28,155 nt of DNA, from the IMG/VR virus record IMGVR_UViG_2547132281_000009, positions 1 through 28,155 of that record; one strand, 5' to 3'. This DNA is from a virus. Lineage: Duplodnaviria > Heunggongvirae > Uroviricota > Caudoviricetes. Shown one piece after another: positions 4,068 through 19,921 of the stretch. Position 1 is the stretch's first letter. Each line of letters opens with the position of its first letter. The position numbers were made by a program, and so were the translations under genes. The notes beneath the pieces are model-generated. The model did not search any database. It was not told the DNA's origin and worked only from the letters and a program-made list of their open reading frames with translations.

Positions 4068-4547
4068 TTAAATTGCGTGAATAGCGTGACGAGGGAAGGG
4101 GAGAGTTACTGGCTCCTCGTCTGGGTAGATAGGTTTGTTATGTTTGTGCCACTCGACATGACATGACTTGCAGAGCCACATCACATCGGTTGGTTTGCTG
4201 TAGTCGCAGTGGTGCGCCTGTGGTTTACATTCTGATCCGCAGCACTCACATTGTGGTGGTCGGATTAGCTTACCGTCGCGCAAAAAATTACCCACGATGA
4301 TGTGGGCTTTTCTTTTCCATGGGTTGCTCTGAATGAACCGCTTTTTGGCTGCGTTACACCGTTCTCTGCCGCGTTCCGATGATTGATATTCTCTCCTTGC
4401 TGATACTCGATGTGGCAATCCCGCGCGCTCTTTGTCGTATTCAGCCAGGCAAGCCCGGCAAGCGGCAGTTAATCCATCTCTGGATGCTCTTCTGATTTGA
4501 AAGTCCCTTTCTTCCTTCTGTTGATGGCATCTTGAGCAGATTTTCAT
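4068..4547 (-). CDS. HNH-family endonuclease-like protein (159 aa)
   Basis: Multiple CxxC pairs and a C-terminal HH...LC..CH motif typical of the HNH zinc-finger nuclease fold; good Shine-Dalgarno. Confidence 0.6.
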   Translation of the reverse strand: MKICSRCHQQKEERDFQIRRASRDGLTAACRACLAEYDKERAGLPHRVSARREYQSSERGRERCNAAKKRFIQSNPWKRKAHIIVGNFLRDGKLIRPPQCECCGSECKPQAHHCDYSKPTDVMWLCKSCHVEWHKHNKPIYPDEEPVTLPFPRHAIHAI

Positions 4548-13856: not shown

Positions 13857-15206
13857 ATGGCTACGTGGCAACAGGGTATTAATTCTGGTGGTTTTCTGGC
13901 TGGCATTGGTGCGCAAAACGAGAATGCGCCAAAGGCAAAAGACATTAATGCAACGCTTGGCCTGATCCGCGAAAACAATGAACTGGCTCGCTCAGGTGCA
14001 AATAACGTTGGCCTGACCGCGTTACGTGGTCTGGCTGGAGTTGCTGATATTTACAATCAGGAACAGCAACAGAAAGCTATTAGTGCGTTCAATAAGGTTC
14101 ACGCTGATGCATGGGCTTCTGGTGATCCATCGGGACTATTTAAGTTTGCCCAGGAAAATCCAGCGTTTGTTGCACAGGCACAACAGGCGTTTTCTGGTCT
14201 TAATGATCAGCAACGCAACGATATGGGCGATTTAGCCATGAGGGCTAACGTCGCTCTTTCTCAGGGACCGGAAGCCTACAGTAAATTCATTACTGACAAC
14301 AAGGACAGGTTAAATCGCGTGGGGGCGAATGCTGACTGGATGATTCAGACAGGTATCCAGAATCCAGAGCAGCTATCACACATGCTGACTACGATGTCTC
14401 TCGGTGCGCTTGGGCCAGAAAAGGCGTTTGCTGTTCAGGACAAGATGGTTGGTCGCCAGCAGGAGCAGCAAAGAATTAACGAAACCATTCGCAATAATGA
14501 CATGACGAATGCGAGGGCTATTAGGGGGCAGGATCTTTCCTATAAGGCTCAAATGGCAAGACTGAATCACGACAAGTATGTGTTTAAGCAGTCACAGGCG
14601 GCCCTTGAAAGAGCAGGACAACTTCAGGATATGGATGTTTTGTCTCTTAACTCACAGATAGCAGCGACGGGAATTGATCCTCTAACCGGTAAAGCTGCAA
14701 CGTCAGCCAGAATGTCTCAGGCTAAGAGATGGCTTGATGGCAACAATAATTACAACAATGCGTTGATTACTGGTGAGCGAGGGATAGAGAAAATAGATTC
14801 TTTGCTTGGTAAGAAGGAGCTTGAAGGTATCGGTCGCTTCGAAGGAAGAAATATAGATGGCTTCACAAGTGCTGAAGGGCTTGCAAACCGTAATGCGATA
14901 GAAGAATTAAAGTCGGGTGCGTTTGTCCAGAACGTGCAGACTATGCGAGGTATGGGTAGCCTCTCCAATGCTGAAGGCCAAAAACTGGAAAACCTGATCG
15001 CGAAACTCGATATAACACAGCCTGAAGAGGTCGTCAGAAAACAGTTATCTGAAATACGATCTCAATATTCTGTATTTCAAAAGGTTGCAGCAAGGGAGGC
15101 TGAATCAATGGGATACAGTTCATCAGGTTATGACACATATGTTAGTGAGCGAAAATCAGGAAGCGACAGCAATAAGTCCGGTTTCTCGTCTTTATGGGGT
15201 GATTAA
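13857..15206 (+). CDS. P22 gp20-like ejection protein (449 aa)
   Basis: Position in the P22 order; size and composition. Confidence 0.65.
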
Positions 15207-17374
15207 TGGCTAAAGCATGGAAAGATGTTATCGCTTCTCCACAGTATCAGGCGTTAACTGAAGAACAGAAAGCACAGGCTCAAGCGCAATATTTTGATGA
15301 GGTTGTTGCCCCTAAGGCTGGTGACAAATGGGCTGAAGCAAGAGATCAGTTTTATGCAGCATACCCTCCGCCTCAGCAGCAGAAAGAAGAACCATCATTG
15401 ATGCAACAAGCTGGCGATTGGCTCACTGGTGGTCAAAGTGCAGGGCAAATTGCAGAGCAGGCTGGTCGTGGTCTGGTAAACATACCATTTGACGTATTGC
15501 AGGGTGGCGCAAGTCTGATTAATGCAATCAGCCAGGGGCTTGGTGGCCCCAAGGTTTTGGACGATGTCTATCGTCCAGTAGATCGACCAACAGACCCTTA
15601 TGCGCAAGCTGGTGAAACAATTGGTGGGTATCTCCTGCCAATTGGCACAGCGGCAAAAGCTGCTGGAGCGCCAGCAAAGCTCGCTGGAGATATCGGTTCC
15701 GCAGGAAACATGATTGCAGGTTCTCTTGCTGATGCTGCAAATCAGGAGGGCGACTTTGCACAAAATGCTGCCATTAACGGTGGTATCAATATTGGTGCTC
15801 AGGGGATACTTTCTGGGGCTGGAAGGATCTTAACCTCTAAATCACCTCAAGTTCTTGGTGGCGGGGCAATAAATTCCGCTGCTGATGTTTCGAAAATGGC
15901 AAAGTCTGGTACAGGAAGAGAGATTATTGCCAGACAGTCAGCTAATGTGTCAGACGAAATAGCAAAAGCAGCAGATACTGCTGGAATAGATATCAACGCA
16001 TTAACTCCTGGCATGAGATCAGGTAGTCGTGGTCTTGCTCAGGCGGAGGGGATTCTGGCGTCAAAGCCCGGAATTACACAGGATGCACACACCAAAGCAT
16101 TCAGTGAAATAGAGTCGAAATTTAACTCAGCATTGGATGAGTTTGGGGCTGAAGCAGGAACTGCATCAGAAAAAAGTGCAGCCATAAAACAAAGGGTTTT
16201 GGCAAGTATTGATAAAATGAAAAATTCAGAAAAGGCCGCATGGGATAGCGTCCGCTCCACGATGCCTGACGCAAAGGCCAGAATGTCAAACCTGAACGCT
16301 ACAATTCAGGGTGATATTTTGGCTGGCATGCCGCTAACTCCTGAGATGAAACAATTCGCATCTGCTTATGCTAAAACTGGTAAAAAAGGAATCACGTTTG
16401 ATGCCATGAAGGCATGGCGAAGTAAACTTGCTGACGCAGAGCAGAAGTATATAAGGTCTGGTGAGGCAAATACGGCAAGGCGCATGGCTGAGCTTCGTGA
16501 TGCAGCAACGGAAGATATGCGCATAATGGCTCAAAATGGCGGTTTTCTTGATGACTGGCAAAAAGCTAATGATCTGTCAAAGGCAAGATTTACAGCACAA
16601 GAACAGGCTGAAGCAGCGTTTGGTAGAGACCTTGCAACTGATCAGTTGGTAACTAATGGATCTAAGGCGTTACAGGGTTCAGCAAAAAGTGGAACAGGTC
16701 AGTTCCATAAAATAATAAGCGCCCTACCTGAGTCGGAACGCGCGCCAGCAATTGCATCAATATTACAAGATGCAATGTCGCAAGGGGTACGCGGAGGTAA
16801 GTCTGAAGAGGCTGGAATTAAGCATATCGCGACTATTCTTACCCCACAAAACGTGAAGGCAATTAGTCGATATTCTCCAGAACTTGGCAGGATTACAAGT
16901 TCATACGGAGAACTTGCACGAGCAGCAACAAAGCCACTTCGATATGTTGAACAGACAGGGCGATCTATGCCAGCCATTAGCACTCTTGAGAATGGCCTTC
17001 ATCCAGTTTTAGAGAGCGCATTGTCTGGCGCTTTTAGAACTACTGGCACTATCGCAGGGTTCTCTGGAGGAGGCGTTATTGGAGCAATAGCGGGTGGCGC
17101 TGCAGGTGGGGCAATTGATGCAATGGCAAAAGGAGCGATAGCGAAATTATCCGCAACTAGAAGCGGTCGTTACGCTATTGAAAAGGCTGTTCAAGAGGCA
17201 ACAAAGGCAGTTAAGGTTGGGGCAAGTGATGGTGCATTAGCGGCGGCGGAACGCAGATTTATGGCAAATAAGGCCGCCGTAAAAGCAATACGCGAGGCAC
17301 TAGGAAACGAAGAGTTCCAGCGTTTAGCAAGAGCTGGAATTGTGGCATCGCTAAGCGGAATGGCACAGGAGTAA
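15206..17374 (+). CDS. P22 gp16-like ejection protein (722 aa)
   Basis: Position in the P22 order; last gene of the rightward structural block; longer than P22 gp16 as I recall it. Confidence 0.65.
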
Positions 17375-17767
17375 TTAGTCATCCATGGATGGATTGAGCT
17401 TATCTCGTGTTGATGTGGCAATTTTCCCAACATTTTTCAACCAAGATTTTAAGAAGGATATGTCGTCCTTAATATCATGAATATCCTCATTCTTTATACG
17501 ATCAACCTTATCCTCTAAGCTCTCTATAGAACGCTCAATGCTAGACAGAGAGATTTTTAAGTCCCCTTGCTCACGTTCCAGTGAGGATTTGAGAGCACAA
17601 TATTCGTTTTCTAGAATTCCTATTTTTTTTGTTAGAGAGTGCATTCGATACTCATACACCAAACCAGAAACGACTAATGCAGCCAACAGAAACCATTCAA
17701 GCACACCAACCTCCTTAGTTTTGTGCAGGATACCAGATGGTTTGGAGTGAGATAAAGGTTTGTCCAC
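17375..17767 (-). CDS. Small membrane-anchored coiled-coil protein (130 aa), candidate superinfection-exclusion or accessory component
   Basis: ORF fills the entire gap between the gp16 stop and the PIN gene; one hydrophobic helix (WFLLAALVVSGLVY) followed by heptad-like charged repeats; GTG start with weak Shine-Dalgarno, so the start is uncertain. Confidence 0.45.
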   Translation of the reverse strand: MDKPLSHSKPSGILHKTKEVGVLEWFLLAALVVSGLVYEYRMHSLTKKIGILENEYCALKSSLEREQGDLKISLSSIERSIESLEDKVDRIKNEDIHDIKDDISFLKSWLKNVGKIATSTRDKLNPSMDD

Positions 17768-17787
17768 TTTTGGCTATAGCTTTATGT

Positions 17788-17815
17788 ATCCGTGACGGAT
17801 GTAATTATCACGGAT
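17788..17815. promoter_or_regulatory. Inverted-repeat element ATCCGTGACGGAT ... TCACGGAT between the PIN gene and the downstream membrane-protein gene
   Basis: 13-bp palindrome at 17788-17800 and a third half-site copy at 17808-17815; no U-tract, so not a canonical terminator; possible operator. Confidence 0.3.
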
Positions 17816-17831
17816 GCATAAAAATTATATT

Positions 17832-18380
17832 TTAGTGTAATCTCTGATCGTCTGAATCGTGTAAGAACTCCATGAGACTTTGAACCGGAATTGGTTCTAT
17901 TGATGATAATGTGAACACAGGAATATTGAGACTTTTGCAACGCTCAAACACTCCCTTATCATGAGTCCATACCTCGTCAGCATTAATTGCTCTTGCAATT
18001 GCTATTATTTGTCTGTCAAACTTAATTTTGTTTGCTGTACCTTCTGTGCTAATTTTCCTTAATTCTTTTAATGTTGGTATCGATGCGCATTCAATAGCAG
18101 CCAACTCATCAAATGATACAGTTTCGAAGCACGATAACGATTTGATAACATTCAGTTTTTCTTGTTGGTAATCTTTATGGATTCCAACTAAAAACTCCGC
18201 CAATACAGGAGTTGGAACGATGATTGTCCCGTTCTTGTTATCTATTCGATCAACAAGAGCTTCTGCTCTTCTTTTGGCATCTGGAATCTCAGAACCAAGT
18301 ATAGGGTCAGATAATCTATAATCGTGTTCTATATCTGATAGTAGGTATACCAGAATATTGGTATCTAAAATTACTCGCAA
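17832..18380 (-). CDS. PIN-domain nuclease-like protein (182 aa)
   Basis: N-terminal MRVILDTNILVYLL with the conserved Asp in the first strand, further acidic residues and a C-terminal WTHD motif, consistent with a PIN fold; TTG start with AGGAAG Shine-Dalgarno, overlapping the upstream stop by 10 nt. Confidence 0.7.
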   Translation of the reverse strand: MRVILDTNILVYLLSDIEHDYRLSDPILGSEIPDAKRRAEALVDRIDNKNGTIIVPTPVLAEFLVGIHKDYQQEKLNVIKSLSCFETVSFDELAAIECASIPTLKELRKISTEGTANKIKFDRQIIAIARAINADEVWTHDKGVFERCKSLNIPVFTLSSIEPIPVQSLMEFLHDSDDQRLH

Positions 18381-19090
18381 TTTATCTTCCTCAGAGTCCT
18401 AAGGATTGAATCAACATCGCGTTCCTCGGACCACTGATCTCCAGGAACTTGCTTGATAGCATTAATAGCATCCTTGAGTGATGATTTTTTGAGCAATACA
18501 AATGAAGTTATTTTTAGTTTCTTTAGCTCCCATTTGTTGTTCTTTTTTTCCCAGCACCCATCTCCTTTAACCCTAATATATTTGAATAGATGGGACCCAA
18601 GAGCTGCCGCCAAATCAGGGGTTGCCTCGCACTTGAATGTTTCACCGTTGGCTCCCTCAATACGCACAGGTATTGAGTTGTCTTTTCCGCCAACACTGTA
18701 TAGCCTTCCTTGAACTTCTGACGTTTTTGTTATGAGTAAAGGGATTGGCTCCTTTTTTACTCGCGGGAATGCGATAATGGTTGAGTGGTTTCGTCCGAGT
18801 AGTTTCGCTGAAAAACCATCATGCTCCAGTAAATTAACAATTTTTTGATACGCGGGTGATTTCTCTTTGGCTGAGAGAGAGGCCCTTGCTATGACAGCGT
18901 TATAACAAATATCATTATCGACCCATGCATTTAAGTCAGCCGATCCTTCACTTACACAGTCGAAGTGAACAGAATCTGCAGAACCGTATAGATCTACGAG
19001 AGCAGACATATACTTGACCAACTTAGCCATTGACAGCTGGCCAGGGGTGGTTCCGTCAAGTTTTAATGTGAGTCCATTGCTTTTTTTCAT
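18371..19090 (-). CDS. Unknown-family protein (239 aa), upstream partner of the PIN-domain gene
   Basis: ATG at 19090; stop overlaps the PIN start (operon); AT-rich; no recognisable motif, no P-loop, no transmembrane segment. Confidence 0.65.
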   Translation of the reverse strand: MKKSNGLTLKLDGTTPGQLSMAKLVKYMSALVDLYGSADSVHFDCVSEGSADLNAWVDNDICYNAVIARASLSAKEKSPAYQKIVNLLEHDGFSAKLLGRNHSTIIAFPRVKKEPIPLLITKTSEVQGRLYSVGGKDNSIPVRIEGANGETFKCEATPDLAAALGSHLFKYIRVKGDGCWEKKNNKWELKKLKITSFVLLKKSSLKDAINAIKQVPGDQWSEERDVDSILRTLRKINCE

Positions 19091-19139
19091 TTGTCATCAC
19101 GCGAGCCAATATCGATATGGTTAACTATACGTCATAAGC

Positions 19140-19394
19140 CTATAACTTACTTTTGCTATAAATATTTTTCAGCGTTTCAAAGACCATCTTCTTAACAACG
19201 TCAGATTGCTCATCCGCGACTCGCTCAGCTTCGTCTCGATAGCCTACAATTGATGATGGCTTTGAGAGAGCATCCTGAACGATTTGTAATAACTCAGAGT
19301 TCATTGACCTTCCGTTAGCCTCGGCTCTTAATTTCAATTTTTCTCTTACTTCCAAAGGCATACGGAAGTTAAAGTGCGGATCATCTCTAGCCAT
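19140..19394 (-). CDS. mnt: Mnt repressor (P22 Mnt-like, ribbon-helix-helix)
   Basis: MARDDPHFNFRMPLEVREKLKLRAEANGRSMNSELLQIVQDALSKPS... closely matches P22 Mnt as I recall it. Confidence 0.85.
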   Translation of the reverse strand: MARDDPHFNFRMPLEVREKLKLRAEANGRSMNSELLQIVQDALSKPSSIVGYRDEAERVADEQSDVVKKMVFETLKNIYSKSKL

Positions 19395-19417
19395 GCCATC
19401 ACTCCAAGTTAGTATCT

Positions 19418-19675
19418 CTAACTTTCGTCTTTATTGTTGCCATACATGCATTTCAACTTCTCAACATCATGTTCAAGATCTATCAATCGTGATGCTATAG
19501 TTGCAAGGTCTAGTGCTTGAATGTGTTTATTTTTTTCGGTCCATGCTTCAAGTGCAGCGACCATCTCAGCATTTAATGAACGAGAATTAGCCTCAGCCAG
19601 TTCAATAAGACGTTCCTTTATCTCTACAGGAAGCCTCAGATTCACTTGAGGGTTTTTGTACTTACGATCAGACAT
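19418..19675 (-). CDS. Second ribbon-helix-helix (Arc/Mnt-family) repressor-like protein (85 aa)
   Basis: NLRLPVEIKERLIELAEANSRSLNAEMVAAL is an RHH fold signature; probable ATG start at 19675 (the ORF-track GTG is at 19681). Confidence 0.6.
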   Translation of the reverse strand: MSDRKYKNPQVNLRLPVEIKERLIELAEANSRSLNAEMVAALEAWTEKNKHIQALDLATIASRLIDLEHDVEKLKCMYGNNKDES

Positions 19676-19721
19676 CGGCACACCCTGAATAATTTTTTAC
19701 CACAGGATATGTAGGTGTCTA

Positions 19722-19761
19722 TTGACTATCAATGCGTACCTAAATACTATGTATGCGTACC
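19722..19761 (+). promoter_or_regulatory. Pant-like promoter (TTGACT, 17 bp, TACTAT) with flanking direct repeats ATGCGTACC (19732-19740, 19753-19761), candidate Arc/Mnt operators
   Basis: Consensus-like -35/-10 with 17-bp spacing upstream of arc; a 9-bp direct repeat brackets the -10 at 21-bp periodicity. Confidence 0.5.
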
Positions 19762-19780
19762 ACATACAGCGGAGGATGCA

Positions 19781-19921
19781 ATGAAGGTAAAAACACTGCG
19801 TATGCCAGAGAAGTTAGAAAAAATCCTTGAAGAGAAAGCAAAGGAAGAGTGTCGATCGTTTAGCGCAGAAGTAATTAAACGGGTGCTGGACAGCTTGAAG
19901 AGAGAGGGGGTGATGGTATGA
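19781..19921 (+). CDS. arc: Arc-like ribbon-helix-helix repressor (46 aa)
   Basis: ATG at 19781 with GGAGGA Shine-Dalgarno; MKVKTLRMPEKLEKILEEKAKEECRSFSAEVIKRVLDSLKREG resembles P22 Arc; first gene of the arc-ant operon. Confidence 0.7.
   Translation: MKVKTLRMPEKLEKILEEKAKEECRSFSAEVIKRVLDSLKREGVMV

Follow-up and report, generated by a model that had tools for sequence, protein, structure and literature searches.

The ‘ant moron’ of the P22-like phages has been described as a region in rapid flux (PMC2629481), and in P22 itself it contains sieA, hkcC, orf59a, mnt, arc and ant. The best-described of these products for the present purpose is SieA, an inner-membrane protein that is sufficient for exclusion and whose escape mutations lie in gp16 and gp20 (PMC10883804). 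Other temperate phages also encode exclusion proteins, among them HK97 gp15 and Lactococcus Sie2009 (cited in PMC10883804). In HK620, a gene named hkcB (AAK28903.1; phrog_5962) lies in a position that converges on gene 16 and is preceded by the same adaptor sequence as the gene considered here. Of the literature searched, PMC2629481 is the one relevant paper with the name, and no phenotype is reported there for the gene; in the same literature, the protein accession WP_000895335 is mentioned nowhere and no phenotype or function is ascribed to hkcB. The gene, deposited in the databases as HK620 hkcB, and the flux of the region were thus both known beforehand.

The window analysed here, a stretch of 28,155 nucleotides from an IMG/VR virus record, belongs to a P22-like (Lederbergvirus) phage or prophage. 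Gene 16 (15206..17374, plus strand) encodes a 722-aa ejection protein of the HK620 type, with 95% aa identity to HK620 gp16, and converges on hkcB (17375..17704, minus strand), the two stop codons abutting. hkcB occupies the variable slot between gene 16 and immI (mnt/arc/ant), which is the site of sieA in P22. In the order of minus-strand transcription, the genes that lead to it are an extra ribbon-helix-helix gene (19418-19681), an mnt homologue (19140-19394), a gene for a 239-aa protein (18371..19090) and a PIN-domain gene (17832..18380; PF01850, E 4e-10), the last two overlapping by 10 nt and belonging to a module separate from hkcB. The 239-aa partner of the PIN protein has an OB-fold domain (AF2 pLDDT 82.5) with Foldseek matches to Stn1, RPA32, the LysRS N-domain and Rim1 (E 3e-5 to 1e-3), so that, as modelled, it would resemble single-stranded nucleic-acid binders and not a duplex-DNA repressor. 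Between the PIN stop and the slot lies a spacer (17735..17831, minus strand) that accompanies the E. coli version of the PIN cassette. Because a terminator scan of the minus strand from 19090 to 17375, the spacer included, found no terminator-like site, co-transcription across this whole interval is plausible. The difference from HK620 is in the upstream neighbour of hkcB, which is the OB-fold/PIN pair in the window and hkcC in HK620; the gene itself shows no difference of substance.

The preliminary description of this DNA had recognised a 130-aa ORF that was thought to fill the whole gap between gene 16 and the PIN gene and to begin at a GTG with a weak Shine-Dalgarno sequence. An open frame of this length does exist (17375-17767, minus strand), but hkcB is a real 109-aa gene of P22-like phages, running from 17704 to 17375, and 127 nt are left between the PIN stop (17832) and its start. 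Its GTG at 17704 comes 5 nt after a strong Shine-Dalgarno sequence, AAGGAGG (17716-17710), so that the weak one had been assigned to the wrong start. The choice of the 109-aa start rests on this spacing and on three further observations. Firstly, phrog_5962, whose function label is ‘unknown’, aligns with residues 22-130 only of the 130-aa frame, and does so over profile positions 1-109 of 109 (E 2.6e-61). Secondly, 109 aa is the annotated length of both HK620 hkcB and the PGAP protein WP_000895335.1, corresponding to a start at GTG 17704. Thirdly, the 21 codons upstream of this GTG fall in DNA that varies among relatives. The gene as corrected is equal in length to HK620 hkcB, with 98.2% nt and 99% aa identity, and shows 99.8% nt identity to phage vB_EcoP-611R6. 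The identical protein is found on at least 1,000 contigs, where it is labelled ‘hypothetical’ or carries spurious transferred names.

The HkcB family is small, comprising 26 clusters at 90% identity from Escherichia, Salmonella, Klebsiella and Serratia. Homologues include epsilon34 gene 14/15 and a CUS-3 gene, and this epsilon34/CUS-3 type is about 50% identical to HkcB. Only 12 matches were obtained in a profile search of 1.84 billion representatives; about seven of these (P0024, P0027-P0030, P0032 and P0033) are HkcB relatives or fragments by sequence. Four long proteins among the 12 appear to be coiled-coil noise, and P0034 was discarded as a relative because what it has in common is only the foreign N-terminal segment of two chimeric alignment members. 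In P0030 (Serratia) and P0033, both distant members, an N-terminal anchor, a long helix and a C-terminal SW(L/V/I)xNVG motif are retained. Searches with HkcB of the Pfam, NCBIfam and PADLOC profiles returned sub-threshold coiled-coil noise only, the best matches, all rejected, being PADLOC DpdH (E 0.002), Pfam FlaC_arch (E 0.037) and NCBIfam ASRP (21 bits, the cut-off being 300). The comparison of the C-terminal part of hkcB with the epsilon34 type gives pN/pS values of 0.22-0.27 at pS 0.5-0.6, and in the C-terminal 45 codons the ratio is 0.27 (pS 0.59, pN 0.16), which amounts to purifying selection on the protein. In Serratia marcescens, a distant member directly follows mnt and converges on a gp16 homologue, so the position of the gene is conserved well beyond the reach of the adaptor.

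HkcB begins with a hydrophobic anchor (residues 1-17), which is followed by a long helix with a heptad pattern, and it has a conserved motif, SWLKNVGKIATSTRDKLNP, in its C-terminal part. The one hydrophobic helix and the heptad-like character seen earlier are both borne out: residues 1-17 have a Kyte-Doolittle mean of 2.0 and are the sole such segment, AlphaFold (AF2) models residues 2-103 as one helix (pLDDT 84), and between residues 36 and 70 eight of the ten a and d positions of the heptads are L, I, V or M, which is equalled in 94 of 5,000 shuffles. The N-terminus is MLE, and in all four divergent members there is no Lys or Arg before the anchor and there is Arg or Lys after it. HkcB is inferred from these features to be a bitopic inner-membrane protein. 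By the positive-inside rule, the Arg and Lys residues after the anchor would place the helical domain and the SW(L/V/I)xNVG motif in the cytoplasm, and the coiled coil and motif are thus predicted to be cytoplasmic and anchored to the inner membrane. Oligomerisation of the helical domain is likewise predicted and is probable.

HK97 gp15 and Sie2009 are small bitopic membrane-anchored exclusion proteins, and HkcB is like them in being a small and, as far as its position tells, prophage-expressed moron product with a membrane anchor, encoded among virion genes. It differs in being predicted to be mostly a cytoplasmic coiled coil, and the likeness noted here is one of architecture. An N-terminal anchor followed by a coiled coil is also the design of the Rz-like i-spanins, but HkcB was rejected as an i-spanin on several grounds. 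The match to phrog_739 is not significant (E 0.1), the gene lies in the ant moron and not in a lysis cassette, it has no o-spanin partner and it is antisense to late transcription; furthermore, since HkcB begins with MLE and has no basic N-terminus, a topology opposite to that of an i-spanin is predicted.

With P22 SieA, HkcB has in common the slot (gene 16 to gene 9), the adaptor carrying the ribosome-binding site and start codon, the antisense orientation and the predicted inner-membrane location. However, BLASTP of HkcB against SieA gave no alignment at E <= 100, and the proteins differ in size and design, HkcB having 109 aa and one hydrophobic segment and SieA 164 aa and three. The P22 SieA types A, B and C have three or four transmembrane segments and a cytoplasmic FxRYPxEAxxFNK motif, and HkcB has neither. 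Judged by sequence, HkcB is not a homologue of SieA.

The shared element is a 33-nt ‘expression adaptor’ (GGTATCCTgcacAAAACTAAGGAGGTTGGTGTG; 17702..17734, minus strand), which contains the AAGGAGG sequence and has the GTG (17704-17702) as its end. It is identical in P22 sieA, HK620 hkcB, 611R6 and E. coli prophages; the four positions 17726-17723 are variable, and two or three positions in its middle vary independently of both flanks. The segment GGTATCCTnnnnAAAACTAAGGAGGTTGGTGTG, ending in the start codon, is the pivot of all the slot arrangements. Together with T17735, the adaptor reads TGGTATCCT (17735-17727), which is like an extended -10, so that a promoter inside the adaptor may be surmised. 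A sieA promoter, PsieA, was reportedly proposed in a 1995 paper. Promoter-like sites are not enriched in the region as a whole (10, against 6.6 +/- 3.1 in shuffles).

When IMG/VR was scanned for the exact pattern, the adaptor was found in at least 119 contigs, and the ORFs behind it belong to 12 unrelated families, P22 SieA included. The slot is therefore a site of cassette exchange of which hkcB is one allele, and translation of hkcB starts at GTG 17704 by way of an adaptor that at least 12 unrelated slot genes, sieA among them, have letter for letter in common. The boundary (linker) sequences of lambdoid mosaics, a concept said to come from the HK620 genome paper, offer a parallel, and bsq features are annotated in CUS-3. 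Like those sequences, the adaptor is short, perfectly conserved and situated at the joint of interchangeable modules; unlike them, it is a complete translation-initiation signal and has two or three freely variable positions in its middle. Most of the proteins concerned have envelope-like features. A strongly hydrophobic segment was scored in 8 of the 12 family representatives, and signal-like N-termini were read by eye in three more (129, 99 and 68 aa); in the authors' reading, 9 of the 12 have an anchor, a signal-like segment or several hydrophobic segments. The 140-aa slot protein has no hydrophobic or signal-like segment. A Pfam scan of ten of the slot families gave no significant match.

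The slot allele goes almost without exception with the C-terminal type of the adjacent gp16 (20 of 21 loci for HkcB, 11 of 11 for SieA and 10 of 10 for the 75-aa gene) and is nearly random relative to the upstream module. All hkcB loci with enough flanking DNA have the HK620-type gp16. A functional link between HkcB and gp16 is possible on this pattern, but physical linkage suffices to explain the association, since the stop codons of the two genes abut and a single gp16 type hosts several slot alleles.

The position of hkcB, antisense to the late operon as are sieA and mnt in P22, suggests that the protein is expressed from the prophage. The gene may be transcribed by polymerases that read on from Pmnt and the PIN cassette, no terminator intervening, with a possible further contribution from the TGGTATCCT extended -10 in the adaptor. 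By analogy with SieA, which blocks the gp16/gp20 DNA-delivery conduit, HkcB might then act in superinfection exclusion or phage defence at the inner membrane; this is the leading guess as to its function, though a tentative one. The earlier suggestion that the gene encodes a separate exclusion protein is plausible on the same analogy. A variant, that hkcB is the SieA counterpart of phages with a SieA-resistant gp16, was rejected. The HK620 ejection proteins are partly SieA-resistant (PMC10883804), but CUS-3 carries hkcB and an HK620-like gp16 (76.7% identical), and yet it is fully excluded by P22 SieA (PMC10883804). Thus, hkcB cannot simply be what SieA-resistant phages have in place of SieA.

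The strongest competitor to an exclusion role, and a somewhat unlikely one, is that HkcB is a prophage-expressed lysogenic-conversion factor, whose target could be a process of the host membrane or cytoskeleton, such as division, envelope stress or transport, or else the induction of the prophage itself. An N-terminal anchor and a coiled coil within about 105 aa are reminiscent of bitopic scaffolds, and a slot allele of the same design has a weak match to DivIC (E 0.004, below the cut-off). Moreover, the slot also houses soluble (140 aa) and signal-peptide-like proteins and so does not appear to be restricted to one function. Set against this are the lack of homology of HkcB to any scaffold family and the fact that the sole characterised slot allele is an exclusion protein (PMC10883804). 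More doubtful again is a broader form of the exclusion proposal, according to which the slot is a cassette-exchange site whose adaptor (ribosome-binding site, start codon and perhaps an extended -10) would allow unrelated small envelope proteins to swap in and be expressed at once, each of the 12 or more families being a distinct exclusion or defence determinant. HkcB would then represent a new class, one that works at the cytoplasmic side of the inner membrane against the DNA-delivery conduit of the incoming phage.

A separate matter is the sequence between the PIN gene and the slot, where a 13-nt palindrome (ATCCGTGACGGAT; 17788..17800) and a third half-site (ATCCGTGA; 17808..17815, minus strand) had been pointed out in the preliminary description, together with the lack of a U tract. 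These sequences and positions are exact, but they are parts of a larger inverted repeat that had been overlooked (17781..17822), with 15-nt arms at 17781-17795 and 17808-17822 that are complementary at 14 of 15 positions and lie 12 nt apart. The palindrome covers the inner end of one arm and runs into the loop, and the half-site is the inner end of the other arm, overlapping a -10-like GATAAT (17809-17804). Among the eight local inverted repeats of at least 13 nt in the window, this one has the highest complementarity. It starts 10 nt past the PIN stop, where most distant relatives show a hairpin and T run. The predicted RNA hairpin has an energy of -17 kcal/mol on the minus strand (z = -5.4) and -20.1 kcal/mol on the plus strand (z = -6.0), where the sole mismatch becomes a G-U pair. 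An intrinsic terminator was considered and rejected: there is a stem but no U tract, the 3' flank reading GCUAUAGCC (minus strand) or AAUUAUAU (plus strand), and the repeat was not among the sites reported by the terminator scan.

The spacer with the inverted repeat is 100% identical in the 32 of 5,426 E. coli genomes that have it, and is always behind PIN. A scan of IMG/VR with a degenerate form of the pattern returned the same PIN-cassette contigs only, so the inverted repeat is not a repeat family or the end of a mobile element. Nor is it a conserved part of the cassette or the slot, since it is absent from a 72%-identical cassette at the same position in Salmonella enterica subsp. salamae, which has an unrelated spacer of about 60 nt and retains no more of the adaptor than its 3' two-thirds. 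The palindrome thus forms the core of a repeat of 42 nt, able to fold into a hairpin, and this repeat is confined to a single recent version, that of E. coli, of the spacer between PIN and the slot. All copies being identical by recent descent, conservation of the hairpin is uninformative; one IMG/VR copy (L070) has an uncompensated G-to-T change in the stem. A covariance scan of 17300-19800 with Rfam 15 gave no match to the repeat, only two chance-level ones at other places in that interval (E 1.1 and 2.8).

The explanation of the inverted repeat ranked first, and a quite possible one, is that it has no function, having arisen when a rearrangement brought this version of the PIN cassette next to the adaptor, and that it persists only because all copies are recent. 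In E. coli all 32 copies are 100% identical, as are most of those in IMG/VR, the pattern is absent elsewhere in IMG/VR and unmatched in Rfam, and the nearest diverged cassette is without the repeat. This explanation has to contend with the quality of the structure, as a 14/15 repeat with arms 12 nt apart is expected only about 0.02 times per 28 kb (the authors' estimate) and the folds have z values of -5.4 and -6. Ranked next is that the inverted repeat is at most an RNA-level 3' or 5' stem-loop that might affect stability or processing, a possibility to be held only tentatively.

Third in rank, and improbable, is a DNA operator, in which a repressor bound to ATCCGT(G/C)A sites would control the promoter of the slot gene, the candidate promoters being the GATAAT at 17809-17804 and a TTCAGA-16-TAAAAT at 17856-17829. 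Three copies of the 8-mer lie within 28 nt, one of them overlapping the -10-like hexamer, with the palindrome just downstream. However, there is no further site in the window at fewer than two mismatches, and a search of the window with up to three mismatches found none that was convincing and none near promoters. By itself, the 8-mer count in the window (4, with 1.64 expected) is not beyond chance, a count of 4 being attained in 8 of 100 shuffles. Neither candidate promoter is strong or rises above the shuffle expectation, the cassette proteins have PIN and OB-fold domains and not HTH or RHH domains, the 72%-identical Salmonella cassette is without the element, and in one natural copy a half-site is broken. 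The preliminary description had suggested that the repeats might act as an operator, for which no support emerged: a second motif copy near the promoters of the window is missing, the PIN partner has an OB fold, and the Salmonella cassette is without the element.

It had also been suggested that the small gene is a third component of the PIN cassette. In such an arrangement, HkcB would be, for example, a membrane effector or an anchor, and the repeats would be its operator. The two genes do lie on the same strand, 127 nt apart and with no terminator-like site between them, so that co-transcription of PIN and hkcB is likely. Their distributions nevertheless make a common module very improbable. 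The 239-aa gene is upstream of PIN in 24 of 24 cassette loci, at identities from 100% down to 44%, and an hkcB homologue is beside PIN in none of these 24 loci, drawn from IMG/VR and GTDB genomes. The relatives at 44-76% identity have no hkcB homologue, and most of those at 51-57% have a GC-rich hairpin and T run (read by eye, not by terminator scan) shortly past the PIN stop, with no hkcB-like gene behind. The scan of GTDB genomes for PIN relatives gave four loci only, none of intermediate divergence. The 72%-identical OB-fold/PIN pair of the Salmonella enterica subsp. salamae prophages, which is at the same position as the pair in the window, was obtained by a protein search with the PIN partner.

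The same independence is seen on both sides of the adaptor. In E. coli prophages, a 99-100%-identical PIN cassette with the same spacer is followed by five genes unrelated to one another: a soluble protein of 140 aa, a signal-like one of 129 aa, proteins of 75 aa and 62 aa, and hkcB. Conversely, on 57-58 IMG/VR viral contigs, hkcB homologues are preceded by at least eight distinct modules, never by PIN, and in CUS-3 the arrangement is alike, the two genes between mnt and hkcB being those of another cassette. Among 5,426 complete E. coli genomes, 81 have full-length hkcB and 32 have the spacer with the inverted repeat, but only two have both. The OB-fold/PIN pair upstream is a two-gene insertion in its own right, on the far side of the adaptor, and hkcB assorts independently of it. 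Weakest of all, and scarcely credible, is the notion that the ORF is not a gene, which its small size, GTG start and want of a family annotation might encourage but which is contradicted by the purifying selection, the strong Shine-Dalgarno sequence, the synteny kept in Serratia, and the architecture and C-terminal motif conserved across genera.

Taken as a whole, the picture that seems rather likely is of hkcB as an occupant of the sieA slot, independent of PIN, that encodes a membrane-anchored protein, perhaps for exclusion or defence, with the palindrome as the core of a hairpin. The PIN locus is best analysed as a two-gene OB-fold/PIN module and not as a three-gene one. The start of P22 SieA is given as uncertain in PMC10883804, and the adaptor supports its GTG (164-aa) start. 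What is added to the existing knowledge of this region is a corrected gene model, the independence of PIN and hkcB, and the recognition of the adaptor as an initiation signal shared by a dozen orphan, mostly membrane, proteins. With the corrected start and the shared adaptor, clean constructs can be made for exclusion tests of hkcB and the eleven other orphan slot genes.

The 33-nt adaptor that supplies the RBS and GTG start of the slot gene, at window 17702-17734 ahead of hkcB, recurs as the same sequence in loci L093-L169; among the matches listed it precedes 12 unrelated ORF families, on at least 119 contigs in IMG/VR. Four positions in its middle, 17726-17723, are variable (GCTC, GCGC, GCAC, GCGA, GCGT, GAGC and others), and this variation is independent both of the upstream module and of the downstream allele. 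The start codon of SieA has been regarded as uncertain, giving a protein of 162 or 164 aa (PMC10883804); the P22 sieA GTG for the 164-aa form (positions 2501-2503 of the P22 locus, L002) occupies the same adaptor position as the start of all other slot genes.

At the other end of hkcB, its TAA (- strand) and the TAA of gene 16 (+ strand) abut at window 17372-17377 with zero spacer and no terminator between them, and late transcription must therefore run antisense through hkcB. When the HK620 and epsilon34 types are compared, the final 15 codons of hkcB show 98% nucleotide identity, against 40-70% for the remainder of the gene. In the metagenomic proteins P0022 and P0023, an unrelated, non-hydrophobic N-terminal half is joined to the last 45 residues of HkcB, its conserved part. 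These fusions suggest either recombination within hkcB or a C-terminal part that can separate as a module of its own.

The occupant of the slot in the S. enterica salamae prophages (L214, L215 and L217, about 4318-4440) is an uncalled 41-aa hydrophobic peptide, MITNIILWIIFAVLVTISVQLSNVTKLLRSIDAKNAESRPE, which is followed by a terminator-like GC-rich hairpin and T run. A hairpin and T run, read by eye, lies 3' of the PIN gene in most of the 51-57%-identical relatives. The 239-aa partner of PIN (window 18371-19090, - strand) has no match in Pfam, NCBIfam or PADLOC. AlphaFold models it (pLDDT 82.5) with an OB fold, for which Stn1, RPA32, the LysRS anticodon-binding domain and the Rim1 SSB are matches, and the pairing of this gene with PIN is kept in hosts ranging from E. 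coli to Pseudomonas. A perfect 10-nt palindrome, ATATCGATAT (19109-19118), lies within the 49 nt that separate the mnt stop from the 239-aa gene's start; it is a possible control site of the PIN cassette. Further upstream, between mnt and the arc-like gene, is a second Arc/Mnt-like ribbon-helix-helix gene of 87 aa (19418-19681, - strand); it is missing from the otherwise near-identical E. coli KE40 prophage, and CUS-3 also has two mnt-like genes.

The gp16 proteins of CUS-3 (L211 913-3072) and HK620 (L001 407-2575) are 76.7% identical over their full length by BLASTP, whereas PMC10883804 gives this identity as 26%. The mismatch bears on the argument made there as to which ejection protein gives SieA resistance.
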